NCBI GenBank assembly: GCA_963697305.1
Contig: CAVONO010000014.1
Location: 3,338-67,337 of the forward strand
Direction: 5' to 3'
DNA from: an uncultured Chloroflexia bacterium
GTDB taxonomy: Bacteria > Chloroflexota > Anaerolineae > Promineifilales > Promineifilaceae
DNA length: 64,000 nucleotides
The notes under the pieces are model-generated. The model saw nothing but the letters and a program-made list of their open reading frames with translations. It did not search any database and had not been told where the DNA came from. The number at the start of each line of letters is the position of its first letter. Within the stretch, counting starts at the first letter, position 1. A program made the translations under genes and the position numbers. Shown in pieces: positions 1 through 18,140 of the stretch.

Positions 1-1620
1 GGTCGGCAGAAGATCCGCGACCTGGACCGCGAATTGGATGAAGAAGATCTGACCGACAGCCAGCAGGCGAAGGCGAAGTGGACGCAGTTGGAAGCGCTGG
101 TGGGCAGCGAAGCGCGGCTTAAAAACGTGGCCAGGGACATCATCGCCCATTTTGAACTGCGTCAGGAGGTCTTTGATGGCAAAGGGATGATCGTCACCAT
201 GTCGCGGCGCATCGCCGCCGCCCTCTACCGCGAGATCGTCGCTCTGCGCCCCGACTGGCACAGCGACGCGCTGGAGAAAGGGGCGATCAAAGTGGTCATG
301 ACCGCCGCTTCCTCCGACGGCCCCGAAATCGCCCTGCACCACACCAACAAACAGCAGCGCCGCGCCCTGGCCGAGCGCATGAAGACGCCGGGTGATGCGC
401 TGAAACTGGTCATCGTGCGCGATATGTGGCTGACCGGCTTCGATGTGCCCTCGCTGCACACGATGTATATTGACAAACCGATGCGCGGGCATAACCTGAT
501 GCAGGCCATCGCCCGCGTCAACCGCGTTTACAAGGACAAACCGGGCGGCCTGATTGTCGACTATCTGGGCATCGCCGCCGACCTGAAAAAAGCGCTCTCC
601 TTCTACTCCGACAGCGGCGGCAAAGGGGACCCGGCGGAGACGCAGGAACAGGCCGCTGCCATCATGCTTGAAAAACTGGAAGTTGTCTCGCAGATGTTCC
701 ACGGCTTCCCCTACGAAGATTATTTCGCGGCGGATACGGCGCAGAAGCTGGCGCTCATTTTAGCGGCCGAAGATTTCATCCTGGGGCTGGAAGATGGGAG
801 GCGGCGCTATATCAACCAGGTCACCGCCCTCTCGCAGGCCTTCGCCCTGGCCATCCCTCATGAGGAGGCGTTGGATGTCAAAGACGAGGTCGCCTTCTTC
901 CAGGCCGTCAAAGCGCGGCTGGTGAAGTTTGACAGCACCGGCAGCGGACGCACGGACGAGGAGATGGAAACCGCCATCCGCCAGGTGATTGATCAGGCCC
1001 TGGTCTCGGATAAGGTGATCGATATCTTCGATGCCGCCGGCATAAAAAAGCCAGATATCTCCATTCTCTCTGAGGAGTTCCTCCTGGAGCTCAAGGGTAT
1101 GGAGCACAAGAACCTGGCCCTGGAACTGCTGCGCAAACTGCTCAACGACGAAATCAAGGCGCGCGCCAAAACGAACCTGGTGCAGAGCAGAAAGCTGGAG
1201 GAAATGCTGGACGCTGCAATACAGCGGTACATCATTAAAGCGCTTACCTCGGCCGAGGTGATTGACGAGCTGATCCAGCTTGCTAAAGATATCGAAGAGA
1301 TGGATGGTGAAGCGAGCAAGATGGGTTTGTCGGAGTATGAGTATGCGTTTTATACGGCCGTGGCCAGCAACGACAGCGCCCGCGAATTAATGCAGCAAGA
1401 CAGACTGCGCGAGCTGGCCGTCGTCCTAACCGAGCGCGTGCGCCAAAACACCTCCATCGATTGGACAATCAAAGAAAGCGTCCGCGCCAAGCTCAAAGTA
1501 ATCGTCAAACGCACCCTCCGCCAGTACGGCTACCCGCCCGATATGCAGAAATTGGCTACGGATACGGTCTTGCAGCAGGCGGAGTTGATTGCGGATGAGT
1601 TGGCTAACGTTAATGAATAA
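1..1620 (+). CDS. hsdR: Type I restriction enzyme R subunit (HsdR), C-terminal ~540 aa; the 5' end lies outside the window
   Basis: The frame is open from nt 1 to the TAA at 1618-1620. It carries the helicase C-terminal motifs DMWLTGFDVPSLHTMYIDKP and QAIARVNR and a long helical tail, as in HsdR proteins. Confidence 0.85.
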   Translation, partial: GRQKIRDLDRELDEEDLTDSQQAKAKWTQLEALVGSEARLKNVARDIIAHFELRQEVFDGKGMIVTMSRRIAAALYREIVALRPDWHSDALEKGAIKVVMTAASSDGPEIALHHTNKQQRRALAERMKTPGDALKLVIVRDMWLTGFDVPSLHTMYIDKPMRGHNLMQAIARVNRVYKDKPGGLIVDYLGIAADLKKALSFYSDSGGKGDPAETQEQAAAIMLEKLEVVSQMFHGFPYEDYFAADTAQKLALILAAEDFILGLEDGRRRYINQVTALSQAFALAIPHEEALDVKDEVAFFQAVKARLVKFDSTGSGRTDEEMETAIRQVIDQALVSDKVIDIFDAAGIKKPDISILSEEFLLELKGMEHKNLALELLRKLLNDEIKARAKTNLVQSRKLEEMLDAAIQRYIIKALTSAEVIDELIQLAKDIEEMDGEASKMGLSEYEYAFYTAVASNDSARELMQQDRLRELAVVLTERVRQNTSIDWTIKESVRAKLKVIVKRTLRQYGYPPDMQKLATDTVLQQAELIADELANVNE

Positions 1621-1705
1621 ACTAGGGCACATAGAAATGGCTTGTTACAGTGCAAACAAACCAAATCGAACAGTACCTCTATGATGATTCCTGGGAGAAA
1701 AACCA

Positions 1706-4700
1706 ATGGCTGACGTCTCACCCTATCTACCTGATCTACTGCGCCTCGTTAAGCGCCACTATCCTGACTGGAACGACTTCACCCACCCGCAGTTCGTCGC
1801 CGATGAGATAGAATACAAACATGAAGCCTCACGGCTGGCCAAAGAAATGCTCAACAGAGAAGCTCTGGAGACTTTGCTTGCTGCCGGCGATTACGACGAT
1901 TTCCTGAGTCGCCTTAAGACCGTGGCCAGCAAGACCAATCTACTCTTTCTTGGCGTACCACAGAAAGGAGATCTAGCGCTCATCAGCCAGCCAGACTCCG
2001 GCGTCGCCCCCATCTGCACCGCCATTTTTGACCTCTTACATGGCCCAGATCTCAGCCAGGATCGCCTGGCAGCTTTTCTTGAATTTGTCACCAGCAGCAA
2101 ACTACCCCAGAAATGGACCTTTCCCACCTATTTCCTGTTTCTCCTCTACCCTGAAAGCGAAATCTTCGTCAAGCCAACGGCAATGAACTGGTTCTCCAAG
2201 GAGCTCGGCGGCGCCGTCCCCTTCTCCTGGGGGCCCAATGGCGCCATCTATGTTGAAATGCGCGCCGCCTTCCACGCCTTGCGCGACGAGCTCAGCGATT
2301 ATGGCGCTCGGGACATGATCGACATCCAGAGCTTTGTCTGGGTCGCCTTCTGGGCCGCTCAGAAAAATGCAGTCTTTGATGCCGCCTTCGAGCGCCTGCG
2401 CACTGGCCTGGCTGATCTGGCCAATCACCATGACCTGCTCGAAATCGAGAAACAGAAGGATGAAGTCATCGAACGTTATGGCGCGATTTTCTCCACAGAC
2501 CATCTGCCTGAACTGACCGCCGAGGAATTCACGAGCTTTCTGCTGTTTGAGAACAACCACCACTGGACGGGCATCAATCGCTATGGCTCGCGCCTTACCC
2601 ACGATATGCCCAAACTGCGCGAAGTATTGGCCATGCTCCATGATGAAACGCGCCCCATCGCCGAACGCTTCGACGAGGTTCGGCAAACGGCAAAAGGGTT
2701 GGACAAAGCTGTCCTGACACCCATACTTTTCGTCACGCACCCCGATCGCTATGGCGTTTGGAATGGCAAGGTAATTGCTGGTTTACGCCAGCTAAACCTG
2801 TATCCGAAGGTTTATGGCAAATACACAGAAGGACGTCATTATGCGGAAATCAATGATGTGCTCAATCAACTGGCGACCGAACTAGAAATCGATTTATGGA
2901 CGCTTGACAGTTTATGGGAATGGATTGGCCGCCAATCGATATTGGCGGAGCCCTTCGCTTCTATTTTCGCTGATCGCGATCAAGCCGAGTGGGCCTTCGA
3001 CTTTTTCGCTGACACGGTTGACCGGGTGGGCGGCAGCCTCAATGATAGGCGCTTTGCCATGACATTGCGCCATACACAGACCCTGCTTCGTCTTAACTTT
3101 GGCAACTGGATGCTGCTTGACATATCAAAGGAGCCTGGCACAGTTCACATGGCTTTATTGATCGAACCAATGAAGAGTCATTTCTCCTTTGAACATTGGG
3201 GGGCATTCGCCCAGGATGATGCCGTGGCTGTATTTTCGATTCCTATTGCCACCGCGAAAGAGTGGCCGGCGGAGCTGCAGTCCATCTACGAAGCAAGCAT
3301 GGATCGCATTGCTGATCGTTTTCGCCGTTGGAAAGGCACTCCTTATATTCACGCCCATCGCGAGGAGCTTTTTCAAGCTCTTTTCGACGAGGAGAAGCGC
3401 GACGTCCTCCTAAGTAAGGGACTTAAGGCAGCGGCGCAAACAAGACGCTACTGGCGTATTACCTTGCCGGACGACCTGCGCCAGAACACGGCCGAAGGCA
3501 GCCGCACCTATAGTCTCTGGCAGAACTGTCTGCATCATGCCCTGGCCGCCATTGCCTTCGACGACAGCCCGGAGAACCCCCAGATTGCACGCTTCGCCGA
3601 GATTGAACCGGGCAACAAAATCGTCGCCTTCTTACGCAACAAGACCATCGGCGGCATTGGCGAAGTCACCTGGCCATTGGATGAACGCGTCGCCCTGGAA
3701 CAGCCAGCCGATCAGGACTATTTTGGCGGCAATTTCTGGCTGCGCATCGGCGTCGACTGGCAGCCCAAAACCATCAGTGTCGATCGGCTTCCTGCAAATG
3801 TACGCAACAAGTTTCTGCAGGGGACAGTCTTGGAACTGAGCCAGGCTGAATTTGAGGCGGTGGAGACAGCGATGCAGGCTGACGCCATCATGGGTGGTGT
3901 AGAATCTGTCGCGGCCCAAGAGTTTGCCGGCTTCACGGCCGACACCTTCGCTTTCATGCGCGAACTGCAGGACAACAATACCAAAGAGTGGATGGAACCT
4001 AATCGCGATCGCTGGAAAGACAGCGTTCGCGAACCCATGCGCGCCCTTTTTACCGATCTCGGCCCGCTGCTGAAGTCGAAGTTTGATCCTTACCTGGTTC
4101 CCGACGCGCTGGAGATCAGGCCAACGGCCCATCATGTTTTGGCCAGAATTCACAAGAATTGGGCGGCAAGGCCGGACAGCATGTACCATGAATACTATTG
4201 GGGTGCGTTCTTTCGCGATCGTTTATCAAGAAAATCAGATGCGCAGTTGTTTATCACCCTATACCCTGATGTCTTTCGTTTCGGTTTTTATTTTGGGGAT
4301 TCGGCCAAACAAGTTCACGATCAGTTTCGCCGTCGCGTCTTAGATGACCCCAATAACCTGTATTTATTAGTTAGCCAGCTCGAACTGACCAATGATTTTG
4401 ACTTTGACCGTAGGCTGGAAGATGGCAAACGCGAGAGAACCGAAATTAGCTCAGCGTCAGACCTGCGCCGCTGGGTAGGGGATGGGGATTTTGAAATGCT
4501 CCAATCCTTGAAGCCGGAAGAAGTAACCATGCTGGGTCCAGCATTGGCCGATCGCATTCACAATGCCTTTCTGCGCGTCTTCCCGCTTTACCTTTGGGCT
4601 GTCGCCGATGATCCTGATCAAGTCATTGAGCGCTATCTCGCCGACGAGTTTCCGGACGACGATTGGGATGGGGATGAAGAGGTTGAGCCTTATACAGAAG

Positions 4701-5557
4701 GTGACTTCCTGGCCATGACCTATTTAACCAACGATACGGCCTCTGAACTCCAGGCAATGCTGGAAGATCGCAAGCAGGTGATCTTCTTTGGACCGCCCGG
4801 CACCGGCAAAACATACGTGGCCCGCCACTTGGGCCAACTGCTGACCGGTCTCGCCGACCCACCTGCGGAGCGAATGGAAATCATCCAGTTCCATCCCACT
4901 TACAGCTACGAGGATTTCATTGAAGGCATTCGGCCTAAGAGCAGCAAGAAGGACGGCCGCTATTTTGTCGATTACCCGCCCAGCTCCGGCGTCTTCGTGC
5001 GCTTCTGCCGCCGCGCCGAAAGCATTGATGGCCCCTGCATCTTTATCATTGACGAAATCAACCGCGGCAACATCGCCCGCATCTTTGGCGAGTTAATGCT
5101 CTTGCTGGAATACCGCGATCTGACTGTTCCCCTCCCCTACTCCAGGGAACGTTTCCGGATACCGGGGAACGTCTACATCATCGGCACCATGAACACTGCC
5201 GATCGCTCCATCGCCCTGGTCGACTTCGCCCTGCGCCGCCGCTTCCACTTTTTCCACTTCGCCGCTGATCCCGATCTATTCGAGCGCTGGCTCTCCGCCA
5301 ACCCATCGCAACTGCCCTATCTCGCCGCCCTTTATCGCCGGTTGAGCCAGGAGGCCATCGACGATCCTCACTTCCGCGTCGGTCCCAGTTATTTTATGCG
5401 CGACGATCTCGATGAGCGCAAACTCAAGCGCATCTGGAAGCGCAGCATATTGCCCTACTTAGAAGAGTATCATTTTGACCAGCTGAACAAAGCCCAACGC
5501 TGGGAGTGGGACAGCGAATTCATGCAGCGCCTGCGCGAGAATCCAGATGGCAGCTGA
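1706..5557 (+). CDS. 1283-aa McrB-family AAA+ GTPase fusion protein with ~1000 aa of extra N-terminal domains
   Basis: GGGAGA RBS upstream of the ATG at 1706. C-terminal McrB hallmarks: GPPGTGKT (4790-4813), IFIIDEINR (5039-5065), GTMNTADRS (5183-5209) and RRRFHF. A DUF2461/TIGR02453-like block lies at ~3932-4420 and a possible PUA/EVE-like block at ~3443-3870. Confidence 0.8.
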   Translation: MADVSPYLPDLLRLVKRHYPDWNDFTHPQFVADEIEYKHEASRLAKEMLNREALETLLAAGDYDDFLSRLKTVASKTNLLFLGVPQKGDLALISQPDSGVAPICTAIFDLLHGPDLSQDRLAAFLEFVTSSKLPQKWTFPTYFLFLLYPESEIFVKPTAMNWFSKELGGAVPFSWGPNGAIYVEMRAAFHALRDELSDYGARDMIDIQSFVWVAFWAAQKNAVFDAAFERLRTGLADLANHHDLLEIEKQKDEVIERYGAIFSTDHLPELTAEEFTSFLLFENNHHWTGINRYGSRLTHDMPKLREVLAMLHDETRPIAERFDEVRQTAKGLDKAVLTPILFVTHPDRYGVWNGKVIAGLRQLNLYPKVYGKYTEGRHYAEINDVLNQLATELEIDLWTLDSLWEWIGRQSILAEPFASIFADRDQAEWAFDFFADTVDRVGGSLNDRRFAMTLRHTQTLLRLNFGNWMLLDISKEPGTVHMALLIEPMKSHFSFEHWGAFAQDDAVAVFSIPIATAKEWPAELQSIYEASMDRIADRFRRWKGTPYIHAHREELFQALFDEEKRDVLLSKGLKAAAQTRRYWRITLPDDLRQNTAEGSRTYSLWQNCLHHALAAIAFDDSPENPQIARFAEIEPGNKIVAFLRNKTIGGIGEVTWPLDERVALEQPADQDYFGGNFWLRIGVDWQPKTISVDRLPANVRNKFLQGTVLELSQAEFEAVETAMQADAIMGGVESVAAQEFAGFTADTFAFMRELQDNNTKEWMEPNRDRWKDSVREPMRALFTDLGPLLKSKFDPYLVPDALEIRPTAHHVLARIHKNWAARPDSMYHEYYWGAFFRDRLSRKSDAQLFITLYPDVFRFGFYFGDSAKQVHDQFRRRVLDDPNNLYLLVSQLELTNDFDFDRRLEDGKRERTEISSASDLRRWVGDGDFEMLQSLKPEEVTMLGPALADRIHNAFLRVFPLYLWAVADDPDQVIERYLADEFPDDDWDGDEEVEPYTEGDFLAMTYLTNDTASELQAMLEDRKQVIFFGPPGTGKTYVARHLGQLLTGLADPPAERMEIIQFHPTYSYEDFIEGIRPKSSKKDGRYFVDYPPSSGVFVRFCRRAESIDGPCIFIIDEINRGNIARIFGELMLLLEYRDLTVPLPYSRERFRIPGNVYIIGTMNTADRSIALVDFALRRRFHFFHFAADPDLFERWLSANPSQLPYLAALYRRLSQEAIDDPHFRVGPSYFMRDDLDERKLKRIWKRSILPYLEEYHFDQLNKAQRWEWDSEFMQRLRENPDGS

Positions 5558-6753
5558 ACCAACCGTTTTGTCGCTGTTCGAACACCGCACACGGACCACT
5601 GACAAGGTCACGTTTCCACAAGCGCGTCATTTGCGAGAAAGCTACAAAAACTATCTGAAGGTGGAACAGAGTTGGGATGAGCCAGGCCAGTTTAACCTGA
5701 CCGCCAGTAACTATATCGGCGTCATTACCATCGACGGCCTTCGCATCCATATCCAACCCAAAACACCGCTCACCAACCTGTTCTTCATGCTAACCTACGC
5801 CTACGAGCTGGCCAAATTCCGTGACGGGGAATCGCCCCTCGCGGCAGGTGAGGATCTTTTCAAATTCTTGATCAAGATTTTCGTGAAGCAAGTCGACCAC
5901 CTTGTGCGCAAGGGCATCTACCGTGGCTATGTCGACTTCGAAGAGAACCACCCCTATCTACGCGGTCGTCTGCTGCTGGCCAGGCAGCTGCAGACCAACG
6001 CAGCACAACTGACACGTTTCCACCAGCGGACCAATGAGCTGACGGCCGATCTGCGCGAGAATCGCATCTTGAAATTCACCCTCTGGCAGTTGTCAAGGGC
6101 CAGCTTCGATGATGCAGTTCTTCGCCGCCAGCTTCGCCGCACGCTCTCCGCGTTTTCCGAAGCGCCCCTGGCACCGGTCAGCCCCGCCGACTGTGATCGC
6201 ATTATCTACAATCGTCTAAACGGCGCTTACCAGACGCCCATCAATTTCGGCGCGACTCTTCATGCAGCATCTTTCTTTAGAAGGTCACAGCGGCGAAACG
6301 CCATTCATGACATATTTACTGCCCATGCACTATATATTTGAATTGTTTGTGGGCCGCTTTTTGGAAGAGTATTTTGCCGCCGACCCCACCTACAGTATTG
6401 ATATCAAACCACAAATCTATCTGGATGTGGCGCAGCGAGAAGAAGGACAACCTGATATCGTCCTCAATAAGAACGGCCGGCCACACTTGATTCTGGACAC
6501 TAAGTACAAGTTGTTCGGAGAAAAGCCGATCCGAGACGATCTCAATCAAATGTTCATGTACTGTCACACAATGGGCGTGCGCCGGGCGGTGCTCATCTAC
6601 AGCGATGCCCGAGCTTTCCATTATGAGGGTCAATTCAAGGGCATGTCCTTATCGGCACGGCCGTTGGCACTGGATGGGGATTTGGCGACGTTCCGCGAAC
6701 GCTGCCGCGTTTTTGCCGAAGGCTTCGCCAAAGAAATCGCAACTGATGTTTGA
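5547..6753 (+). pseudogene. mcrC: McrC-family PD-(D/E)xK nuclease subunit interrupted by one frameshift
   Basis: The ATG at 5547 overlaps the upstream stop by 11 nt. The N-terminal McrC pattern (YIGVITIDGLRIHIQPK, YLRGRLL) runs into a stop at 6341. The C-terminal part (FMTYLLPMHYIFELFVGRFL, PDIVLN...LILDTKYK) is in the +1 frame, which is open from ~6220. The junction reads ...YQTPIN/LARLFMQHLSLEG if one base near 6246-6250 is removed. Confidence 0.75.
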
Positions 6754-6855
6754 ATCCTTGGGTTATGTTACGCCAAGGCTGTTGAGCGAGTACATAGAGA
6801 AAATGGCTGCTGGCAGAATATTGTTAGCGGTTTGAGAGTTGTGAGGAGGCGTTAA

Positions 6856-7600
6856 GTGGACCACCCATTTAAAGTAGGCGAAACCTACCACAACCGTTAC
6901 GGCCGTTACCAGGTCCTCTCTATCGACGAACCCAAAATGCGCGTTCGCTATGAAGACGGCCGTGAGATCAATCTGACCATCACCATCCAGGCCCAGATAT
7001 GGGAAAACATACGGCTGCAAGAATCGACGGCCGTCAAGAAAGACACGCGACGAAAATCCAAAAAGCAGGGCCAGAAAGCGCCGTCCAAGGCCAGCGAACA
7101 AGAGGAGCTGATTGCTGAGATCCTCGAAACCGACGACGCCATCTTCGAAATTCTGACCCGCTTGGTTATCCCCCCAGGGCAGCTTGACCTCTACCTGTTC
7201 TTCGTCAGAAACCCCGACGATTACTTCTCGCAGCAGCAAATTGCCGATGCAGTCAGAGGCGCTAATCTTGAGGGTCAGCGGGGCGTGTTTATGGCCTTTG
7301 GTAATCGGATTGGTCGCTCCCCCGTATCCCCGTGTTCGCTCGTTAAAACCGTACAACAGCTTGTTTTTTGAACGCAAGAGAATTGGGGGCAAAAGCTGTT
7401 TAAGGATTCGCCGTCGCGTGGTGGAAATATTTGAATCCTACCCGAAATTTTATGATTTCCTGATCAATGCCGCTCGCGGCTGGCTGCCGGAGGAGTTTGG
7501 ATCGCAAGGATGGGAGAATAGTACGGCCGTGCACCACGCGCAGCTGCGCTATTTTGACTTCTGGGAGCGGTATAAAGCTGATGCAAGGAAAAAAAGTTGA
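6856..7600 (+). pseudogene. Hypothetical protein (small N-terminal beta-rich module, basic linker, wHTH-like segment) with an apparent frameshift
   Basis: GAGGAGG RBS 6 nt upstream of the GTG at 6856. The first frame ends at 7371. The sequence continues plausibly in the +1 frame (PYNSLFFERKRIGGKSCLRI...YPKFYDFLINAARGW) to 7600. The shift lies within ~7310-7345, next to a C5 run. Confidence 0.4.
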
Positions 7601-7744
7601 GGAGTAGGCGCTTTAGCGGCAACGTGATTAAAGTGATTACTCCGTCCAGTTTCAACGCATCTTGATGATCGTTGGCGCGCCCCATAACGGTAAACTCAAC
7701 GGCCGTCTAATTTGCCCGGCTAACAAATATCCATGAACCCATAT

Positions 7745-8431
7745 TTATTCGAATAAATCGGGATCAGACCACGCTTCCGTTGGATCCTGCAACAAGATAA
7801 GCACTTCGTAGTTACCCTGTCCCACGTTGCGATCCAATGTACGCATGATGCTTTCAACATCATCATACGGCCCATTCACAAACAGGGGTTTGCCATCTTT
7901 GCCTAGGGGAATCGTCTGCGCACAGTTCTCTGGGTTGGCGTCGCCGAGTATCTTCAAGGCCATGGCCGCGTCTTTGTGTGGATTGAACCCCAAGGAGCGA
8001 GCGTAGACAGTACCTTCCTCAATCACCTTTGCCGCCAGGTCCAAATCACAATCCATCATCGGTTGGGATGCCAGTAAATGCCGGCGATATTCGCGCCGAT
8101 ATTCGGCTGCTGACGGGTATAGGTTGGTCAAAGCGTTTTTGACGCCCAGGCAGGCCAAATCAACGATGAATCCGCCCACAACGACCTCGCCAGTCGCGGG
8201 TGATTGGCGGACGACTGCCACCTGGCAGAGCTGTGGCGAATCTTGCCAGCTCTGCGAAATCAGACATTCCAGCAGCGGCCACTGGCCTATTTCCGCCAAT
8301 TTAGGCTTTAGCTTTCGCAGGCCGAGCGCGTTCAATGAGCTCATGACGCGGCTGGACCGCGAGCGTTTACGCGCCCGTTGTTGTCGCTGGTTGGTTTTTT
8401 TGAGACGGTATTTAGCGGACTTCTTGACCAT
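7745..8431 (-). CDS. Conserved hypothetical protein with a Lys/Arg-rich N-terminal tail
   Basis: ATG at 8431 preceded by AAGGAG, 7 nt upstream on the minus strand. The 228-aa ORF has non-repetitive composition. I recognise no family motif. Confidence 0.5.
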   Translation of the reverse strand: MVKKSAKYRLKKTNQRQQRARKRSRSSRVMSSLNALGLRKLKPKLAEIGQWPLLECLISQSWQDSPQLCQVAVVRQSPATGEVVVGGFIVDLACLGVKNALTNLYPSAAEYRREYRRHLLASQPMMDCDLDLAAKVIEEGTVYARSLGFNPHKDAAMALKILGDANPENCAQTIPLGKDGKPLFVNGPYDDVESIMRTLDRNVGQGNYEVLILLQDPTEAWSDPDLFE

Positions 8432-8695
8432 GACAATACTCCTTACGATCTCGAATAATAGCCTAAACCGCCAGTTCCTGAAATAGAGGATAGCAGCCAA
8501 AGGGGCTGGAGACGGCCGATGATCGGCGGGCGTGGTTGATTAATGCGCGTAATATGCAGCGCTTGAAGGAAATTAAGGGGATTGGCAATAAAACGGCCGG
8601 CTATTTCAAGATCCTGACGGGAATCCCCACCACTCCACAAAAAATCTGCGTAATCTGAGCAATCTTTGATGATATCTTTTCGATGTTTTTCCCTC

Positions 8696-8725
8696 TTGAC
8701 AAGAACATCTGTTCTATTCTATACT
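8696..8725 (+). promoter_or_regulatory. Sigma-70-type promoter with a LexA (Cheo-type) box in the spacer
   Basis: TTGACA (8696-8701), an 18-nt spacer, then TATACT (8720-8725). The spacer contains AGAACATCTGTTCT (8702-8715), which is GAAC-N4-GTTC with palindromic arms. Confidence 0.5.
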
Positions 8726-8769
8726 GCAAGTGAAACAGAACAAACTTCAACCAAAATACGAGGTAGGGC

Positions 8770-8901
8770 ATGAATTCAGAAAAGCAGTCAGCAATGTCAC
8801 AGAGCGACCGCTTCGCGTACAGGTATCAGGCGTCAGCTGACGCCGGATACCTGACACCTGACCGCTCCCACCCCCCAAAATCGACTTTGATCCCAGAATA
8901 A
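8770..8901 (+). CDS. Candidate 43-codon sORF downstream of the LexA-box promoter (may instead be non-coding RNA)
   Basis: ATG at 8770 with GAGG 8 nt upstream, and TAA at 8899-8901. The product is hydrophilic and matches no known family. It is too short for confidence. Confidence 0.2.
   Translation: MNSEKQSAMSQSDRFAYRYQASADAGYLTPDRSHPPKSTLIPE
8821..8852. repeat. 32-nt near-perfect palindrome
   Basis: AGGTATCaGGCGTCAG/CTGACGCCgGATACCT, with one A/G mismatch and no loop. It lies inside the putative LexA-controlled transcript. Confidence 0.85.
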
Positions 8902-9349
8902 AAACATCAAAAGGAACAAAGAAACAAAAGCTCCCCAAAACACCCTCTCAAAAAAGAGCAATACTCTAACTTGACATAAAACAATAACGAGAAGAGGCGG
9001 CAATTCGGCCCTCTATTTTCGCGCGTCGTCCTGCATGTTGGCCGTATATCATTAGGGTGCGATTAATCCGGCATACGGCCGTTTGTGAAAAAATGTACAC
9101 TGTACGTGGGCTGAGGGGTGATCAAGTCGTACGCCAGGTTATGAATCGAGTGTAGTTTTGTCACGCCATCCCGGTCTCGAGGAGAGACTCTGAGGGTCCA
9201 AGACCGGGTCTGCGCTGGACCCGTAAGCGGCGTGGCAACCGGCCTTTTTGGCGCGGCTGCGTGCCCGAGGAGGTGCTGATGGTTCCTGACTGATACTTTG
9301 GCTCATCTTAATCGTTGGTTTGGGTTAAGATTCACTTCAAGGAGAAATA

Positions 9350-10780
9350 ATGAGTACGCAAAGGGAAAGATCACCGAAGGTAACCATCTACGTTCTTGTG
9401 CTGTTTCTGCTGCTGGGGGGCATCATGGTCGCGGCCATTTTTGTTACACCCTCTTCCGCAGCCCATAAGCCTATCTCCAAAAACATCATCGTCCTCATCG
9501 CCGACGGCCGTGGCTTCAATCACGTCAGGCGGCGGACTACTACAACTATGGCAAGAAAGCGCGGCAGGTGTACGAGCACTTCCCGGTTCGTTCGGCCATG
9601 AGCACCTACATGGACTATGACGAGGGGGATCCCTGCTATGGGCCAGGGTTATGATCCGGCTGCTGCCTGGAGCGCGTTCGATTATGTGAGGATTGCTACA
9701 CGGATTCGGCCGCGGCCGCCACGGCGATGTCTACCGGCGTCAAGTCCTATGATGGCGCCATCGGCGTCGACATGGACGAGGAGTCAGTGCGCCACCTGCT
9801 GGAGATGGCGGAGGAGAAGGGCCAAGCGACGGGCGTGATCACCAGCGTCGAGTGGACGCACGCCACGCCGGCCGGTTTCGTGGCCCACAATGTATAGTCG
9901 CGACAATTATGCTGAAATCGGCCAGGAAATGGTCTATGACAGCGCGGCTGATGTGATCATGGGCGCCGGCCATCCCTGGTACGATGCCGACGGCGTAATG
10001 AAAGCGGATCCCGCCCAACACCTTCAAGTACGTGGGCGGCGAGACAACGTGGGATGACCTGGTGGCCGGGACCGCCGGAGGGGATGCTGATGGCGACGGC
10101 GCCGACGATCCCTGGACGCTCATCCAGACGCGTGCCGAGTTCCAGTCGCTGATGAGCGGCCCGACCCCGAAGCGTGTCCTGGGCACGGCGCAGGTGTACC
10201 AGACGCTTGCAGTCGAACCGCAGTGGTGATGGGTATGCCGATCCCTTTGTGGTGCCTCTGATAGATACGGTACCTACGCTGGAAGAGATGACCAAAGCGG
10301 CGCTCAACATCCTGGACGACGATCCCGATGGCCTGTTCCTGATGATTGAAGGCGGAGCGGTCGACTGGGCCAGCCATGCCAACCAATCCGGGCGCATGAT
10401 TGAAGAACATATCGACTTCGACAATTCTGTGCAGGCGGTGGTGGATTGGGTCCAGAAAAACAGCAACTGGGGCGAGACGCTGCTGATCGTCACCAGCGAC
10501 CATGAAACCGGCTATTTGACCGGTCCGGGCTCCGACCCCAGTTGGATGCCGCTGATCAACTAATGGCAAAGGCGTTCTGCCGGGCATGGAGTGGCACAGC
10601 ACTGATCACACCAACAGCCTGGTGCCGTTCTATGCCAAGGGGGACGGCAGCCGCATCTTCAAGACATTTGCCGATGAATTTGATCCGGTTCGCGGACGCT
10701 ATCTGGACAATACGGAGATGACTGCGGGCATCCAGTGGGCCATGGACCCGGTGGCCAGGCCCCGACGATCGTACAGGTAG
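9350..10780 (+). pseudogene. Alkaline phosphatase (PhoA family) with a signal/TM segment, broken by at least 7 frameshifts
   Basis: AP motifs are spread over three frames: [75 protein letters not shown] and HSTDHTNSLVPFYAKG. Frame switches occur near 9528, 9645, 9690, 9895, 10010, 10205 and 10560. Confidence 0.8.
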
Positions 10781-10850
10781 GCTGATGGGGATGCCTGCGG
10801 CGGTAGGCATTGAATAATTCCCCATTGAGTGCCCTGAATCGTGTGTGCAA

Positions 10851-10892
10851 CAGCAGATACGCTCGGCCAAACGAGCGCATCTGCTGTTTTTT
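10851..10892 (+). terminator. Intrinsic terminator downstream of the phosphatase pseudogene
   Basis: A 15-bp stem (10851-10865 / 10872-10886, one A-C mismatch), a 6-nt loop, then TTTTTT (10887-10892). Confidence 0.65.
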
Positions 10893-10895
10893 CAC

Positions 10896-10937
10896 CTCGC
10901 CACTCGCCACTCGCCACTCGCCACTCGCCCCTCGCAA
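10896..10937. repeat. Heptanucleotide tandem repeat (CTCGCCA)n
   Basis: Four perfect units (10896-10923) followed by two degenerate units (CTCGCCC, CTCGCAA). Intergenic. Confidence 0.9.
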
Positions 10938-11016
10938 CCTTTACCCCTTGCGGTTCGCCATTCTATGAGTATCATGTAATCAGGTGACAATTGCATCAAG
11001 CAGCGAATAGAGGTAT

Positions 11017-12771
11017 ATGATGCCCAACTCAACAAGGCAATATGTTTTTGCCGCATCCCTGGCCGGCGTGGAAGACCGGGGTCAATTGACCGTACAAGTA
11101 GAGGGGCACACCGTGGCCTTATTTGCTCATCAGGGCTCCGTCTTTGCCGTCGATAACCGCTGCCCCCATATGGGTTTCCCTTAGACCAGGGCACGGTACA
11201 CGATGGCATTCTGACCTGCCACTGGCACCATGCCCGTTTTGACCTGGACAGCGGGGGCACCTTTGACCAGTGGGCGGATGATGTACGCCATTTCCCCGTG
11301 CAGGTGCGTGAGGGAGAAGTATGGGTGGACATTGCCGACCATACAGAACCTTGTTTGCATCAATGCGGCCGTTTGCTCGTCGGGCTGGAAAGGGACATCC
11401 CCCTCGTTATTGGCAAATCCGTGCTGCAAATGGCCGAAGGCGAGCCGCAAATGGCCGAACCTTTCAGGACCGGTTTGCAATTTGGCGCGGCTTTTCGCTG
11501 GTCCGGTTGGGGCCAGGGGCTGACGATCCTCACCTGCTTGGTGAATATGCTGCCCTTCCTGCCAGAAGAAGAGCGCCCGCGCGCCCTTTACCAGGGGCTG
11601 TCCGCCATTTCCAGGGAGCTATCCGGCTCGGCGCCCCGTTTCGGCGTGGCCCCTCTGCCCGAGGCCACGAGCGATATCCCGACCCTGAAGCGTTGGCTGC
11701 GGCGCTTCATCGAAGTGCGCGATGCCGAAGGGGCTGAACGATGCCTGGTCTCGGCCGTGGCCAGCCGGCGCTGATCAGCGGCAGGCTGCCGATATGCTCT
11801 TCGCGGCGGCCACGGATCATCGCTACCTGCAAATTGGACATGTCCTCGACTTCACCAACAAGGCGCTCGAAGCCTTAGATATCGCCGGTTGGGATCTGGC
11901 CGGCACCTTGCTGACCAGCCTCGTGCGCGCTTATGCCACGGCCGAGCGCATGGAGGAATCCAATTCCTGGCGCAATCCGCTCGATTTGGTGGCCCTGCTG
12001 GAAAACAGCTTTGAACGTCTGCCGGCGGTTCTCGAACAAGGCCGCTTGCAGCAAAAAAAGGACGGCGCTGCCTGGCCGGGACGGGAGAAGCTGGTCGCCG
12101 TCATCTTGGGGGATGATCCGCAGGCGACGGTAGACGGCCTGTTGGCCGCCCTGGCCGAGGGGTCGCCTGCAGTGGATTTGGCATCGGCCGTTTCCTATGC
12201 CGCCGCTTTGCGCATCGCTCGTTTCCATACCAGCAACGAGTTTTCCGACTGGGACACGGCGCTGCACACCTTTACTTTTGCCAATGCCGTAGAGCAGGGT
12301 TTGCGCCGCGCTCCCTCCGTCGAACTGCTGCGCGCTGTTTTTGATGCCGCGATGAGCGTCTATCTGGATCGTTTTCTCAATATACCCGCGGCCCATTTGC
12401 CGCAGCCAACAGAAGAGGCGGCTGATAGTGAGGCGCTGCTGGCAGCGCTTCCAACCATGCTAGACCGCCAGCAGCAGGTTGATCAGGCGGGAGAACTCGT
12501 AGCGCGTTATCTCTACGCGGGCGGCGATCAGGAGCGCTTGATGGCCGTTTTGGGGTCGCTTTTGCTGCGCGAAGATCGCGACTTCCATACGATTCAGACC
12601 ATGGAAGCGGCCTTCAGGCAGGCACAGTTACTGCAGGGGTCAAAGGATGCGGTTCACGTTTTGGTCGCCGCGGCCCGTTATCTGGCCGCCCACGCCCCCA
12701 CCGTTCGCGCGCAAGGACAGACCTTCGAGATCGCGCGCCGCCTGCACCACGGTGACCGGCTGCACGTCTGA
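11017..12771 (+). pseudogene. Rieske [2Fe-2S] domain protein fused to a ~450-aa helical C-terminal region, with two frameshifts
   Basis: The Rieske motif is split: CPHMGFP is in the frame of the ATG at 11017 (stop at 11182-11184), and LDQGTVHDGILTCHWHHARF follows in the next frame. A second shift near 11750-11765 joins ...CLVSAVAS to ADQRQAADMLFAAATDHRYLQ, which runs to 12771. Confidence 0.65.
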
Positions 12772-13491
12772 TTGATGCCGGCCATGACCTCTCTCCTTTT
12801 AGGAGCGCAGCGCCTCGGCATCCCCTTGACTACCGGGCAAGTGGCTCAGTTTGAACAGTACCAGACGCTGCTGCTGGATTGGAACCTGCGTTTGAACCTA
12901 ACGGCCGTGCGCGAAAGCGACCAGATCCAGACGCGGCACTTTCTAGATTCGCTAACTTGTTTTCTGGCCACGGGTGACTTGAACGGCCGTTCCCTTATCG
13001 ACGTAGGCACGGGTGCCGGCTTTCCTGGTTTAGCGCTGAAGATCGCTTTTCCAGACCTAAAATTAACCCTGCTGGAAAGCGTGCACAAGAAAACGCGCTT
13101 CCTGCAAGCAGTGGTGGACGAGCTGCAGCTAGCCGGCGTTCAGATTATCGCCGGCCGTGCAGAAGGTGTTGCCCGCACCCCTGACCACCGCGAAGCTTAT
13201 GATTGGGCTGCAGCCCGCGCTGTGGCCGGCCTAAACATCCTGGTCGAGTATTTGTTGCCTTTCGTCCGTATAGGGGGGAGCGCCTTAGCCCAGAAGGGGC
13301 CCTCTGCCGTCACTGAAACGGCTGGTACTGAAAAAGCGATTTCAATCCTTGGCGGTGGCGCTGCGCAATTGCTGCCCGTGCAGCTCCCGGGTCACGATCA
13401 GCCGTCCTACCTGGTGGTGATAGAAAAGACAAATCCCACCCCAGACGCATATCCCCGTCGTGTGGGCGTCCCGGCAAAACGGCCGTTGTAG
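12772..13491 (+). CDS. rsmG: 16S rRNA (guanine527-N7)-methyltransferase
   Basis: LNLTAVRESDQIQTRHFLDSL and the SAM motif DVGTGAGFPGLALKI. The length is typical. The start is TTG 12772 or ATG 12775. Confidence 0.9.
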   Translation: MMPAMTSLLLGAQRLGIPLTTGQVAQFEQYQTLLLDWNLRLNLTAVRESDQIQTRHFLDSLTCFLATGDLNGRSLIDVGTGAGFPGLALKIAFPDLKLTLLESVHKKTRFLQAVVDELQLAGVQIIAGRAEGVARTPDHREAYDWAAARAVAGLNILVEYLLPFVRIGGSALAQKGPSAVTETAGTEKAISILGGGAAQLLPVQLPGHDQPSYLVVIEKTNPTPDAYPRRVGVPAKRPL

Positions 13492-13601: not shown

Positions 13602-13636
13602 GACTGACGACTGTTGGCTGTTGACTGTTGGCTGTT
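13602..13636. repeat. Heptanucleotide tandem repeat (GRCTGTT)5
   Basis: Units GACTGAC GACTGTT GGCTGTT GACTGTT GGCTGTT. This is the reverse complement of the AACAGCC family seen at 63371-63426. It abuts the recF stop codon. Confidence 0.85.
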
Positions 13637-14849
13637 AATCCAGCCGCACACGACCGTCCACAACCGTCATACTTGTCGCTTTCTCCAGGAATCCAGCACT
13701 GAACATCCCCGGATCGGTTGCCGTCAAAATAGCCTGCTCAACCTTTTCCACGGCATGTAGGAGAAGCTCTCGCCGCTGTTGGTCCAATTCAGCCAGGACC
13801 TCATCCAGCAGCAGCACGGGCTTTTCTCCGGACAACCTGGACATCCACTCAATTTCGGCCAGCTTCATGGCCAGCATAGCGCTGCGCTGCTGGCCGCGCG
13901 AGCCATAGTCGCTGAGAAGATGGCCGTCTATCCAGAAACACCAATCATCGCGATGCGGGCCAATTGTAGTCGCCCCGCGTGCGATGTCCGTCCCCTGGCA
14001 GCTTGCCAGTTCGCTGGCAAAGCGTTCGCCGACGGACCCCACATCACCTCGCTGCTCATTTAGCCAGCCGGCTACGCCCACGGCCGTCTCTTTGTCATGG
14101 TCGTTCTGATTCACTTGCAAGCGTGGCAGATAACCGATGCGCAGTGATTCGCGCCGGTCGGTTAGATCCTCGTAATGAATGCGCTGCGTCTCGCGGCTTA
14201 TCTCCCTGAAAAAGGCGGCCCGCCGTGCATAGATTTGACTTCCCAACTGCACCAGGCGCTCGCTGAATATGGCCAATATCTCCAGATTGTCTTGCCCTTC
14301 GGCAAGCCGTCGCAGCGTCGCGTTACGCTGTTCAAGCACCTTGTTATATTGCGACAGGTTGCGGCAGTAGTAGGAGTCGATCTGGCACAGCAGCACGTCC
14401 AAATAACGGCGCCGTTTGTTGGGCGCACCGGTGATCAGGTTCACATCCTCCGGTAGGAACAGCACGACCTGAAGCTGGCCAAGCATATCCATCAAACGGA
14501 CTTTGCGGCGGTTAACCAGCGCTTCGCGCCGGAAACTAACCTGCCCACGCTCCTTTTCCTCCTTGATCAGGCGCAGCTCCACCAGCCGCGTTCCCTCTCC
14601 GGTGGCAATCGTAGCCACTAGACGGCCGACGATCAGCGGATCAGGCGTTTTCAGGACTTCCCAGTTGAGCAGCTGGTTGTCTTGCCCGGCGTGGGGAGAG
14701 CGGGTTGTAGCCAGATAGGTGAGCGCTTCCAGCAGATTCGTTTTGCCTTGCGCGTTTGCCCCATGCAGCAGCGTTGCACCCAGCGGCAGTTTGAGTTCCA
14801 GACGGCCGTAGTTGCGAAAATTTTCGAGGGATAGGTGAGTGACGTGCAT
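13635..14849 (-). CDS. recF: DNA replication and repair protein RecF
   Basis: N-terminus MHVTHLSLENFRNY...LLHGANAQGKTNLLEA (Walker A), and the SMC-like signature and Walker B regions (LLLDEVLAELD). Confidence 0.95.
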   Translation of the reverse strand: MHVTHLSLENFRNYGRLELKLPLGATLLHGANAQGKTNLLEALTYLATTRSPHAGQDNQLLNWEVLKTPDPLIVGRLVATIATGEGTRLVELRLIKEEKERGQVSFRREALVNRRKVRLMDMLGQLQVVLFLPEDVNLITGAPNKRRRYLDVLLCQIDSYYCRNLSQYNKVLEQRNATLRRLAEGQDNLEILAIFSERLVQLGSQIYARRAAFFREISRETQRIHYEDLTDRRESLRIGYLPRLQVNQNDHDKETAVGVAGWLNEQRGDVGSVGERFASELASCQGTDIARGATTIGPHRDDWCFWIDGHLLSDYGSRGQQRSAMLAMKLAEIEWMSRLSGEKPVLLLDEVLAELDQQRRELLLHAVEKVEQAILTATDPGMFSAGFLEKATSMTVVDGRVRLD

Positions 14850-15153
14850 AAATGGGGCACCTTATAGTAAGGCATTACCTCAAGACGGAATAGACCCATT
14901 TTATCATTAAGGAACCATATCGTCACAATGTCCCCGCAGCACCATCAATAGGTCGTTCGCTCAGGCTGCAGAATCATCTATCTTGCTTATTTGATTGGGT
15001 AACCGCCGCAGTCGCGAAAAAACTTTCGCGCTCCAATTACGTGATTGTGAAATCGCGGCTGCCTTCCCCTGTTTTTTTGTACCTCTTCATTATTCTGCGC
15101 AATCTTTGACTCTGAAGGGGTGCCTGTGACGCCATAAAGCAATATAATCCTGT

Positions 15154-16752
15154 GTGAAAATAATGACTACCCGACTACCCGACATACTATTCATTGTGCT
15201 CGACACGCAGCGAGCTGACCGCCTCGGTTGTTATGGTTATGACAAACCGCTTTCACCCAATTTGGATCGTTTCGCCGCCCAAGGTGTGGTTTTTGAACAA
15301 GCGATTGCGCCGGCCCAATGGACCGTGCCCAGCCACGCTTCCATGTTCACCGGGCTATATCCTACCGCTCACCAGCTAACCCAATCCGCGCAACGTCTGA
15401 GCCCGGCGCTGCCACACCTGCCCCAGATCCTGTCGACCTCCGGTTATGAGACAGTCGGTTTTTGCAATAATCCTTTGGTGGGAATACTGAACAATGGCTT
15501 TAAGCGCGGCTTCCAACATTTCTTCAATTATGGCGGCGCCATTCCCAGTTTGCCGCATGCCTCCTCCGGGTTGCCCTGGCCGCTGAACCATTTTGCGGAA
15601 AGCTATACGCAATTCTTGCGCCGCATTTCCTATCCCATTCAGAATTATTTCGGCCAGTCAGACCTGGCTTTCCGCCTTTCGCTTAAGTCTTGGGCAACGC
15701 CGCTGTGGTCGAAATTAGCCAATTTTAAAGGCCAGAATGCCCGTTCCGTAAAGGATGTATCCCACTTTCTGCGCCTGCGCGAAAAGAAAGATTCAGAAAA
15801 ACCGCTCTTTCTTTTCCTCAACCTGATGGAAACGCACCTGCCTTTTTGGCCTCCCGGCCACTATGTAGACCGCGTCGCGCCCTATATCCGCGAAAGCAGA
15901 GAGGCCAGAACCATCATGCGCACCTGGAACCGGGAAGCGTATCGTTGGGCAGCTCCCCTGGCTGATCCACTTGGCGAACTCGAAAGCAACGTTCTCAGCG
16001 ATATGTACGACGCCGAAGTGGCTTACCAGGATGATTACCTGGGCGAGCTATTTTCGGCGCTAGACGGCCGTGCCAACCGCTCCAATACATTGACTGTAAT
16101 TGTAGCGGATCATGGTGATGGCCTGGGTGAACATGGTTACATGGGGCACGCCTTCGTCGCCTACCAGGAACTGGTTCATGTACCCTTGATCGTCGATTGG
16201 CCGCAGCAGTGGCCCCACGCCGCGCGCATAGATACACCGGTCAGCACGCGGCGCGTTTTCCATACCATGTTGGAGGCTTTGGGACAGGGCCCGCAGGAGC
16301 TAGCGGAATCGATTTCTCCAGAGGCACGACGGTTGTCTTTAAGACACACGGCAAACGGCCGTGATCCAGAAAATGGCACAGCCTTTAGCGAAATCTACCC
16401 ACCCCTTAATTTCGTCAAGGCCATCGAACAACGCCAGCCACACCTTCTGCAGCAGTTTCGCTGCCTGTCGGAGCGGCGCGCCATCGTGAGTGAGGGGCAA
16501 GACACAACCCACAAACTGATTCACCTTGATGACCGAGCCGACGAGCTGTTCGATCTCGCGCTTGATCCGCTGGAGTTAAAGGATATCCAAAAAGGCAGGC
16601 CGCACATTCTGGCGTCTCTTGATGTTCAACTCAAACAAATGGTGGATAATGCGCTGCACCAGCGCGGTCACCAGACCGTAGACGCGCCAATTGATTTGGA
16701 AAGTGATGCGCATTTGATGCAGCGCCTGCGCGGGTTGGGCTACCTTGACTGA
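15154..16752 (+). CDS. Sulfatase-like hydrolase/transferase (alkaline phosphatase superfamily)
   Basis: ILFIVLDTQRADRLGCYGY...PNLDRFAAQG...WTVPSHASMFTGLYP and VADHGDGLGEHG. The nucleophile position is Thr rather than Cys/Ser. An alternative start is ATG 15163. Confidence 0.75.
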   Translation: MKIMTTRLPDILFIVLDTQRADRLGCYGYDKPLSPNLDRFAAQGVVFEQAIAPAQWTVPSHASMFTGLYPTAHQLTQSAQRLSPALPHLPQILSTSGYETVGFCNNPLVGILNNGFKRGFQHFFNYGGAIPSLPHASSGLPWPLNHFAESYTQFLRRISYPIQNYFGQSDLAFRLSLKSWATPLWSKLANFKGQNARSVKDVSHFLRLREKKDSEKPLFLFLNLMETHLPFWPPGHYVDRVAPYIRESREARTIMRTWNREAYRWAAPLADPLGELESNVLSDMYDAEVAYQDDYLGELFSALDGRANRSNTLTVIVADHGDGLGEHGYMGHAFVAYQELVHVPLIVDWPQQWPHAARIDTPVSTRRVFHTMLEALGQGPQELAESISPEARRLSLRHTANGRDPENGTAFSEIYPPLNFVKAIEQRQPHLLQQFRCLSERRAIVSEGQDTTHKLIHLDDRADELFDLALDPLELKDIQKGRPHILASLDVQLKQMVDNALHQRGHQTVDAPIDLESDAHLMQRLRGLGYLD

Positions 16753-16805
16753 GTACCTTATAAAATTGTGCACTTATTAACCATAGTTTTCACAGGATAC
16801 AGGAT

Positions 16806-17693: not shown

Positions 17694-17957
17694 ACTGCGG
17701 GATCTGATTGGCGAAGGGAAAGTGTTTCTTCGAATCCGTACGCTTCATACCAGCCCTGCGGAACGTTATTTATGGCGAATTTGCGTGAGAGGGGCGGAAA
17801 TTTGCCGCAAAACGTGGTAAAATTGGGTGGTAATTGTAAGTAACCCGGGTAATAACTTCTGCTTGCCCCTTTTGGTTGGGCTTCAGAGGCGAGTTTGCAC
17901 CGCCTGTGGAATGCACAGAATTGTAAGCGGTGCGGAGAGAACACAGGAGTAAGGAGT

Positions 17958-18140
17958 ATGGCTAAGCGCAGAGTGGAGTTGAGCGAGGACCAAATACAAC
18001 GTAATGCGGAGATATTGGCTCGCCTGGAGTCAGAACGCGAACGTCTCTGTGAAGAAACGCGTGCGCTCCAGTTGAGAGAACGCAGCCGTCCCGGTCGTAA
18101 GCGCCGCAAGAAACAGAGAATGAGTGAAGAAGCGACCTGA
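17958..18140 (+). CDS. Small basic coiled-coil hypothetical protein (60 aa)
   Basis: ATG at 17958 preceded by AAGGAG. The product is MAKRRVELSEDQIQRNAEILARLESERERL... and matches no known family. Confidence 0.35.
   Translation: MAKRRVELSEDQIQRNAEILARLESERERLCEETRALQLRERSRPGRKRRKKQRMSEEAT

Follow-up and report, generated by a model that had tools for sequence, protein, structure and literature searches.

The DNA considered here, 64,000 nt of contig CAVONO010000014.1 from an uncultured Chloroflexia bacterium (assembly GCA_963697305.1; positions 3,338 to 67,337, forward strand) and hereafter called the window, carries near its start a long mcrB-like gene and, overlapping its end, an mcrC gene. 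McrBC is a textbook modification-dependent restriction system. The mcrB-like gene (1706..5557, + strand) is intact and encodes a protein of 1283 amino acids (aa), with the layout N1-N2-N3-EVE-DUF2461-linker-GTPase/lid; a chance open reading frame (ORF) is ruled out by full-length homologues at 55-75% identity. On the reading preferred here, with a probability of roughly 60%, this would be a type IV (modification-dependent) McrBC-like module whose McrB carries a tandem array of sensors in place of the one small DNA reader found in E. coli McrB.

The last 290 aa of the protein form an AAA+ GTPase of the McrB type, from which no catalytic motif is missing. The GTPase and lid region (residues 1021-1283; 4766..5557, + strand, stop codon included) contains a Walker A motif, GPPGTGKT (4790-4813, residues 1029-1036); a Walker B motif, IFIIDEINR, with the core IIDEINR (5039-5065, residues 1112-1120); the stretch GTMNTADRS (5183-5209, residues 1160-1168), which includes the NxxD signature MNTADRS (1161-1167); and an arginine motif, RRRFHF (5234-5251, residues 1177-1182). 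In phmmer searches against PDB, residues 994-1267 matched the E. coli McrB GTPase at E 2e-52 (6hz4; also 6ut6 and 7vsr) and that of Thermococcus gammatolerans McrB at 8e-40 (6ut3). The NCBIfam McrB model PRK11331 was matched at E 3.6e-51 with 174 bits, against an equivalog cut-off of 637; by these scores the protein is a McrB domain homologue and not an equivalog. Pfam AAA_5 also matches this region (E 1.7e-19), and PADLOC recognised it through its “REase_II” models only.

The mcrC ATG, at 5547, overlaps the stop codon of the mcrB-like gene (5555-5557) by 11 nt, and mcrC is translationally coupled to it. A preliminary description, made from the sequence alone, had reported an oversized McrB homologue coupled in this way to McrC and lying beside hsdR. 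The strength of the GTPase match, the 11-nt overlap and the co-directional orientation of these genes bear this out, and the 1283-aa ORF and all the motif peptides quoted there were relocated, with the numbers in agreement.

For the N-terminal region, structures were modeled by AlphaFold2 with custom alignments, as residues 1-580 (mean predicted local distance difference test score, pLDDT, 91.6) and residues 575-1000 (mean pLDDT 89.5). Pfam gave no usable match for residues 1-745 or for the linker, even at E ≤ 10 (segments searched: 1-225, 220-415, 410-585, 575-745, and the linker). The linker itself (residues 966-1020; 4601..4765, + strand) includes a stretch of acidic residues modeled with low confidence, DEFPDDDWDGDEEVEPY, and then leads into the AAA+ domain; pLDDT is low in the final blocks of the second model.

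Directly before the linker is the DUF2461 domain (residues 741-965; 3926..4600, + strand), with a predicted YktB/DUF1054-like fold. Pfam PF09365 matches residues 747-964 at E 2.2e-17 over profile positions 2-208 of 208 (64.1 bits, gathering score 22.8). TIGR02453 is matched at E 8e-11 with 42.1 bits, below its cut-off of 105.4, so that by profile score the module is a member of the Pfam domain and not of the TIGR02453 subfamily. The peptide FTADTF...RDRW lies at 3932-4015. The top structural match for the 575-1000 model in Foldseek was B. subtilis YktB (2a8e, DUF1054; E 8.7e-6, TM-score to target, TMt, 0.69, 238 columns), and a second DUF1054 protein, 3mqz, was also matched by this module. Within this clade the GTPase is more often preceded immediately by DUF2461 than by any other module. 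The literature searched holds no functional data for DUF2461 or DUF1054/YktB.

The preceding module (residues 577-740; 3434..3925, + strand) is an EVE/YTH-like domain of the PUA superfamily by its modeled fold, and is a predicted reader of a flipped-out modified base. It includes the peptide RRYWRITLP (3443-3469), and its pLDDT exceeds 85 for most of its length, with ~70-74 in the first strands. The Foldseek matches were PH1033 (1wmm, E 6e-5, TMt 0.66; also 2hd9); the MRB1 YTH domain bound to N6-methyladenosine (m6A) RNA (4u8t, E 2e-4); the EVE-HNH restriction enzyme VcaM4I (6yex, E 2e-4); Rpa0253 (2gbs, E 4e-4); and many YTHDF2 entries and THYN1 bound to 5-methylcytosine (5mC) DNA (5j3e). Together the EVE, YTH, VcaM4I and THYN1 matches span E 6e-5 to 3e-2. 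The assignment is thus supported at the structure level only, and the EVE segment, used by itself as query, retrieved no homologue. N3 (residues 413-576; 2942..3433, + strand) is an alpha/beta module, in the model a six-stranded sheet flanked by helices. It has no convincing structural match, Foldseek giving only a weak one to YjbR (2fki, probability 0.57).

The first two modules, N1 (residues 1-222; 1706..2371, + strand) and N2 (residues 223-412; 2372..2941, + strand), are both all-helical. N1 matched no Pfam family and is probably HhH-GPD glycosylase-like; N2 appears Ogg/EndoIII-like, and with its invariant YGVWN motif is a predicted non-catalytic sensor of modified bases. This placement comes from the model of residues 1-580: about half of its top 50 Foldseek matches in PDB are HhH-GPD DNA glycosylases, led by the Ogg2-type enzymes MjOgg (3knt, 3fhf), TmOgg (3n0u) and SsOgg (3fhg), with probability 1.0, E-values from 6.5e-3 (3knt) to 0.12, and ~200-213 aligned columns. 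MutY, MUTYH, MagIII and hOGG1 come lower in the list. None of the top 50 reaches E 1e-3, and a search of the N-terminal model against viral structures (BFVD) gave nothing below E 0.04. The models and matches together suggest that one or two of these modules have an Ogg/EndoIII-like fold.

A possible sequence counterpart is PF21790 (OGG-like), which matched the N2 of one homologue at E 0.011 (15.9 bits, cut-off 27), over a segment ending in a predicted helix-hairpin-helix (HhH). The window's own N2 has no Pfam match at E ≤ 10, nor have any of ten N1 segments taken from homologues. In the N2 model the HhH is formed by helices 318-328 and 334-344, with the hairpin AKGLD between them; after a loop rich in Pro and Gly comes the invariant Asn352, which caps the next helix. 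Asn352, the last residue of YGVWN, is 23 residues past the hairpin Gly, which by eye we take to be the spacing of the catalytic Asp138 in E. coli Nth; at the equivalent position N1 has FVKP (Lys-Pro). The N1 and N2 profiles align collinearly over 147 columns (hhalign), albeit weakly (E 0.0035, probability 9-17%), with N1 “LPnKWTFPTYfLF..P..E.FVKP” paired with N2 “GlGkAv.TaILlV.yPdrYGVWN”; from this we infer that N1 is a distant paralogue of N2.

N2 also has a life outside McrB. A profile search found 253 relatives, many of them stand-alone proteins of ~200 aa, and in ~40% of the 120 examined N2 is N-terminal and followed by at least 80 more residues, annotated in part as NucS (PF01939) or HNH (PF01844). 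Among plasmid-encoded proteins, tblastn found N2 in one from Paracoccus annotated “endonuclease NucS domain-containing protein” and in one from Salinibacter annotated “DUF3578 domain-containing protein”, DUF3578 being a 5mC-reading domain. Three motifs, FL..N.HW, YGVWN and DLWT.D.LW, show at least 90% conservation across the wider family, and the window's N2 has kept them. A Pfam census of 69 short proteins containing N1 or N2 returned only AAA-type families among the top 25. Among the closest N2 relatives (P0211-P0327), ~60% are stand-alone, ~190-300 aa long and with no other detected domain; some may be truncations on short contigs, and others free-standing sensors or decoys. A 665-aa protein of Sulfitobacter brevis DSM 11443 (L007, 9584-11581) has, by eye, an N2-type module (FLLFENNHHWTG...YGVWN), a PUA/EVE-like middle region and a C-terminal HNH-like motif, and would be another single-chain nuclease built on an N2-type sensor.

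Over the N-terminal 1000 aa, then, profile and structure searches confirm DUF2461, support the EVE fold, suggest a glycosylase-like origin for N1 and N2, and leave N3 unassigned. The preliminary description had proposed a DUF2461/TIGR02453-like block and a PUA/EVE-type reader, preceded by ~570 residues with two similar helical modules that it could assign to no family. The first of these is right as to Pfam family and too short, the domain running to ~nt 4597 rather than 4420, with TIGR02453 below its cut-off; the second agrees with the predicted fold and has no counterpart in Pfam. The similarity of the two helical modules is upheld by the weak N1-N2 alignment, while the ~570 residues divide into three modules, N3 among them. 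A family for the helical pair can now be suggested, from the glycosylase matches and from the occurrence of N2 in fusions with NucS-like and HNH nucleases.

Nor is the architecture the isolated oddity it had seemed. An exhaustive HMMER search of 1.84 billion cluster representatives, with residues 1-745 as the query, gave 1802 proteins at E ≤ 1e-3, of which 1042 were at E ≤ 1e-10; the modules thus recur in more than 1800 clusters, mostly before McrB GTPases. When the query segments were mapped onto 210 collected homologues, N1 (residues 1-222) was present in 161, N2 (223-412) in 48, N3 (413-576) in 76, where it is sometimes repeated, the EVE-like module (E, 577-740) in 14, and DUF2461 (D, 741-965) in 53. 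In 130 of these homologues a McrB GTPase (G) was detected on the C-terminal side of the modules, many of the rest being short or truncated, and the commonest layouts are N1-G, N1-D-G and N1-N3-D-G. As modeled, the N-terminal 1000 aa are five confidently folded modules, which are shuffled independently among relatives.

The complete N1-N2-N3-E-D-G layout is rare, with ~6 clusters (P0001, P0002, P0004, P0003/L001, P0005/L013 and P0018), the last three of which are frameshifted or truncated. Identity to the window protein is 67% for P0001 and P0002, 55% for P0004 and 75% for L001; the closest relatives are from Chloroflexota metagenome-assembled genomes (MAGs), of Chloroflexia (the 75% match) and Anaerolineae. 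Homologues carry PF28529 (McrB_lid), and a recently created Pfam family, PF28530 (DUF8426), is recorded on many long McrB homologues, including P0004 and P0066. Identity of DUF8426 with N1 was considered and is unsupported: a 223-aa protein consisting of N1 only has no Pfam match, and proteins lacking N1 carry DUF8426. DUF8426 probably overlaps the DUF2461-like region.

Pairing with McrC, a linkage that the preliminary description had left to a survey of homologues, is conserved: intact, overlapping McrC genes of 406-418 aa lie behind them. The intact homologues P0004 (on L008) and P0002 (on L009) are followed by McrC genes of 411 and 406 aa, each overlapping by 11 nt as in the window, and P0066, a more distant McrB bearing N1, by a McrC with DUF2357 and PDDEXK_7. 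The neighbourhoods of these homologues are defence islands. Directly upstream of the long McrB, L008 (4037-6160, 707 aa) and L009 (5782-7923, 713 aa) have a gene for a UvrD-family helicase, in the position occupied by hsdR in the window; this association with a helicase may be a conserved one. Beyond the helicase gene L008 encodes an unannotated 1169-aa protein, and L009 has a gene for a GmrSD type IV enzyme.

The window's own mcrC is not intact. It is split into two ORFs in different frames (5547..6341 and 6262..6753), as the preliminary description implied in speaking of a “frame-repaired operon”. The 5' part (5547..6248, + strand, original frame) encodes the N-terminal McrB-interacting region (PF10117, E 4.9e-31, profile positions 1-190), and the 3' part (6249..6753, + strand, +1 frame) the PD-(D/E)xK nuclease domain (PF10117, E 3e-13, profile positions 197-318), with the motif PDIVLN...ILDTKYK. 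The McrC of an Anaerolinea MAG (L002), which is intact and 418 aa long, is by tblastn 47% identical to the first fragment and, at its C-terminus, 53% identical to the second; relative to it the frame switches between ...PINFG and ARLFMQHLSLEG.... The frameshift site (6246..6250, + strand) has an extra C at ~6248, in TTTCGGCG, relative to the 95%-identical contig L013. L013, compared by blastn, reads INLARLFMQH in a single frame, corresponding to INLARLLIQH of the L002 protein, and deletion of the extra C from the window sequence restores ...PINLARLFMQHLSLEG... and a McrC of 401 aa. Because L013 lacks that C and agrees in a single frame with L002, the window mcrC carries a 1-nt insertion at ~6248. 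PADLOC did not recognise the McrC.

The module is therefore possibly inactive in the source genome, and the strongest alternative to a working restriction system, at somewhat less than even odds, is that the frameshift is real and the locus a pseudogenised defence remnant of a once-working McrBC variant, perhaps counter-selected for attacks on the cell's own DNA or on modified DNA that it had recently acquired. The most that could then survive is the ability of the McrB-like protein to bind DNA. The insertion separates the McrB-interacting part of mcrC from its nuclease part; it is not in a long homopolymer, where sequencing errors concentrate; and the other window genes examined are long unbroken ORFs with full-length family matches. 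Set against decay, the 3.85-kb mcrB-like ORF and both halves of mcrC show no other damage and keep their conserved motifs, so that if the module has been inactivated, this happened very recently. The nearest relatives, moreover, come from error-rich assemblies (L013 has 52 gaps in 6.9 kb, and L001 is fragmented), and the window may for this reason share their error profile.

If the system does work, or did so until recently, a mechanism can be proposed along the following lines. N2, and probably N1, would be inactivated Ogg/EndoIII-like modules that flip hypermodified bases out and hold on to them but do not excise them, as has been proposed for the END nucleases (PMC12191111). The EVE domain would read a second class of modified base, for example 5mC- or 5-hydroxymethylcytosine (5hmC)-type marks. 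DUF2461 might couple the sensor array to the GTPase ring or add DNA contacts; a coupling or DNA-clamping role is favoured because it is so often found directly before the GTPase. Sensor-bound McrB hexamers would recruit McrC and hydrolyse GTP to translocate DNA, with cleavage when translocating complexes stall, as in E. coli McrBC. By stacking readers, one enzyme could target a broad range of phage DNA modifications.

A more specific proposal can be offered only tentatively, and taken as a whole is rather doubtful: a “pan-modification” McrB with three different base-flipping readers on one GTPase ring, namely the EVE domain and two diverged, inactivated Ogg/EndoIII-like modules. A single McrBC complex would then restrict phages whose hypermodifications are chemically unrelated (deazaguanines, modified pyrimidines and 5mC/5hmC derivatives), and the DUF2461/YktB-like domain would be a coupling module, not recognised before, that transmits sensor occupancy to the McrB motor.

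Several points weigh against the tandem-sensor reading. The frameshifted mcrC means that the module cannot cut here, unless the insertion is an assembly error. No significant sequence link joins N1 or N2 to HhH-GPD families, the best being the single PF21790 match noted above; profile searches of PDB sequences with alignments A1, A2 and A3 returned McrB/AAA+ proteins or noise only; and hhalign of the N2 profile with E. coli Nth gave no meaningful alignment. The TMt values of the glycosylase matches are modest, at 0.35-0.50, and the Foldseek output gives no query coordinates to say whether N1, N2 or both are matched. The placement of Asn at the catalytic Asp position is a by-eye alignment to the Nth sequence, rather than a computed one. 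Residues 575-745 match neither Pfam EVE (PF01878) nor any other family at E ≤ 10. N2 has been set beside the iEndoIII domain of the END nucleases by domain layout and description. Finally, the proposed mechanism is for all members of the clade an extrapolation from sequence, models and analogy.

If the glycosylase-like modules were active rather than inactivated, N1 and/or N2 might excise modified phage bases in the manner of Brig1, leaving McrB and McrC to process abasic DNA. The best structural matches are after all active Ogg and MutY enzymes, and an active site could be built from polar residues that are strictly conserved in N2 (NN-HW, DE, YGVWN, DLW). What makes this improbable is the invariant Asn in N2, and Lys-Pro in N1, where by eye the essential HhH-GPD Asp would presumably lie; Asp-to-Asn mutants of MutY and EndoIII bind without cutting. 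Antiviral glycosylases do exist (cited in PMC12191111), but the iEndoIII domains of the END nucleases are themselves reported to lack catalytic residues (PMC12191111). Least likely is an RNA-directed, CoCoNuT-like complex in which the EVE/YTH-like and other modules read modified RNA: several top EVE-module matches are m6A-RNA-binding YTH domains, and RNA is the predicted target of those CoCoNuT McrB homologues that have YTH-like domains (PMC11090510), but the window protein has the NxxD signature (MNTAD) and not the NxD of the CoCoNuT clades, its models show no long coiled coil, Pfam finds no CSD, HEPN or other RNA-linked domain, the remaining structural matches are to DNA enzymes (VcaM4I, THYN1 with 5mC DNA, Ogg/MutY), and its McrC has a standard PD-(D/E)xK motif. 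Both of these alternatives are rated low relative to the tandem-sensor reading, on account of the Asn and Lys at the presumed catalytic position, the NxxD signature, the matches to DNA enzymes, and the lack of RNA-linked domains and coiled coils.

Upstream of the mcrB-like gene, after an 85-nt gap and in the same direction, is the 3' part of an hsdR gene (34..1620, + strand; type I restriction), which runs off the start of the window. It matches Pfam T1RH-like_C (E 6.4e-132) and T1R_D3-like (E 7e-22), and PADLOC REase_I at E 7e-186 over profile positions 506-1028 of 1029. The error-rich metagenomic contig L013, 95% identical to window positions 12-6899, extends further upstream (1-6400), where it has fragments of an N6 DNA methyltransferase (HsdM-like), then a gene with a DarT domain, and then hsdR. 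DarT is a DNA ADP-ribosyltransferase toxin domain; on L013 its gene is flanked by those for the methyltransferase and HsdR. Upstream of the window, the island probably includes a type I restriction-modification (R-M) system in which a DarT-like gene is embedded.

Beyond mcrC, some 5 kb (6760-11700) contain only ORFs of 60-250 aa, and no Pfam or NCBIfam match was found for the ORFs between 6763 and 11771. GC content falls to 0.49-0.52 around 8000-9500. The stretch may hold novel small genes or decayed cargo of the island, or it may be non-coding. Housekeeping genes follow, including rsmG (gidB; 12772-13491), recF (13635-14849, - strand) and lgt. At 15000-19000 the local GC skew flips from ~-0.15 to +0.15, with a cumulative minimum near 16.5-17.5 kb. 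The genes recF and rsmG (gidB) are often near replication origins; the skew may mark a strand switch or origin-proximal region, or merely be an effect of gene orientation. No Rfam RNA family was found in the window, and a promoter/terminator scan gave the same counts as in shuffled sequence.

The kind of system is already known: McrBC is type IV restriction, and both EVE-McrB and iEndoIII-McrB fusions are on record. Searches of the literature did not turn up two things: a single McrB that combines in tandem two diverged glycosylase-like modules with N3, EVE and DUF2461; and a description of N1, N3 and DUF2461/DUF8426 as a sensor toolkit shuffled across more than 1000 McrB-like clusters. Nor does that literature hold an experimental test of such a stacked-sensor McrB, a paper linking DUF2461 to McrB, or a characterised system with this architecture, the last as the preliminary description had supposed. 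In the McrBC census (PMC11090510), DUF2461 is unmentioned in the text or supplements searched.

Long McrB proteins of this sort make up a very large clade that has no name of its own, and the locus exemplifies it cleanly. RefSeq calls these proteins “AAA family ATPase” or “DUF2461 family protein”, and they stack interchangeable predicted sensors, among them glycosylase-derived modules of the kind through which END nucleases were recently shown to recognise many phage hypermodifications. To our knowledge only a few McrB N-terminal readers have been characterised (ADAM/DUF3578, YTH/EVE-like). If the sensors are additive, such proteins would show bacteria broadening type IV restriction against phages that hypermodify their DNA; they would supply new modular modified-base readers for epigenetic tools; and they would give a first functional context for DUF2461/DUF8426 and for the N1 and N3 modules. 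Should the pan-modification proposal prove true, the coupling role would be the first function for the widespread DUF2461/DUF8426/DUF1054 fold. Some caution is called for in the choice of material: because the window copy may be dead from its frameshifted mcrC, the intact homologues on L008 and L009 are better experimental entry points.

Among known systems, CoCoNuT, defined by extensive coiled-coils in CnuB/McrB, NxD and RNA-linked accessory domains (PMC11090510), was considered and rejected as a home for this module: the signature is NxxD, there is no long coiled coil in the models of residues 1-1000, and no CSD, HEPN or SmpB domain is among the Pfam matches.

With DUF2461/TIGR02453 proteins the likeness is that residues 747-964 match PF09365 above its gathering score. 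Annotations of related long McrBs give DUF2461 or DUF8426 (PF28530) alongside McrB_lid. Typical DUF2461 proteins are stand-alone and ~220-230 aa long. Membership of the family explains nothing mechanistically.

E. coli K-12 McrBC is the next comparison. As here, it has an AAA+ GTPase with Walker A and B, NxxD and arginine motifs, a McrC with PD-(D/E)xK directly downstream, and a co-directional type I R-M system, an association often seen in the E. coli-type NxxD branch of McrBC (PMC11090510). It differs in size, E. coli McrB being 459-468 aa and the window protein 1283 aa, and in its reader: the DUF3578/ADAM domain of E. coli McrB is absent and is replaced by five modules, namely the two glycosylase-like ones, the unassigned N3, EVE and DUF2461. 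The frameshift in the window mcrC is a further difference.

EVE-family domains are the commonest fusions to McrB GTPases (PMC11090510), and the EVE/YTH-McrB fusions (Bell et al., 2020; T. gammatolerans McrB; compare VcaM4I, an EVE-HNH enzyme) share with the window protein an EVE/YTH-like fold N-terminal to the GTPase, a PUA-superfamily fold predicted to hold a flipped base. The window's EVE module is however too divergent for PF01878, and is internal and flanked by other modules instead of being the sole N-terminal reader.

The END nucleases, described in a 2025 bioRxiv preprint (PMC12191111), offer a parallel for the glycosylase-like part. Their specificity module for hypermodified phage DNA is an inactivated EndoIII/Ogg domain (iEndoIII), which aligns to PF21790 and EndoIII and is also found fused to “the McrB-like GTPase”, a fusion listed without experiment (PMC12191111). 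END-Mag, a metagenomic member combining a NucS-like PD-DExK nuclease with iEndoIII, restricts modified-guanine phages, and its best HHpred match is an archaeal Ogg (PMC12191111). In both cases a glycosylase-derived, apparently non-catalytic HhH module would serve as sensor of modified phage DNA; N2 relatives, like END-Mag, carry NucS-like nuclease domains; and an archaeal Ogg is the best structural or profile match for each. From this likeness of layout, N2 is probably an END-Mag-type sensor module. The END nucleases fuse a PLD or NucS-like nuclease to the sensor, whereas the window has a GTPase motor and a separate McrC, and two tandem glycosylase-like modules plus EVE and DUF2461.

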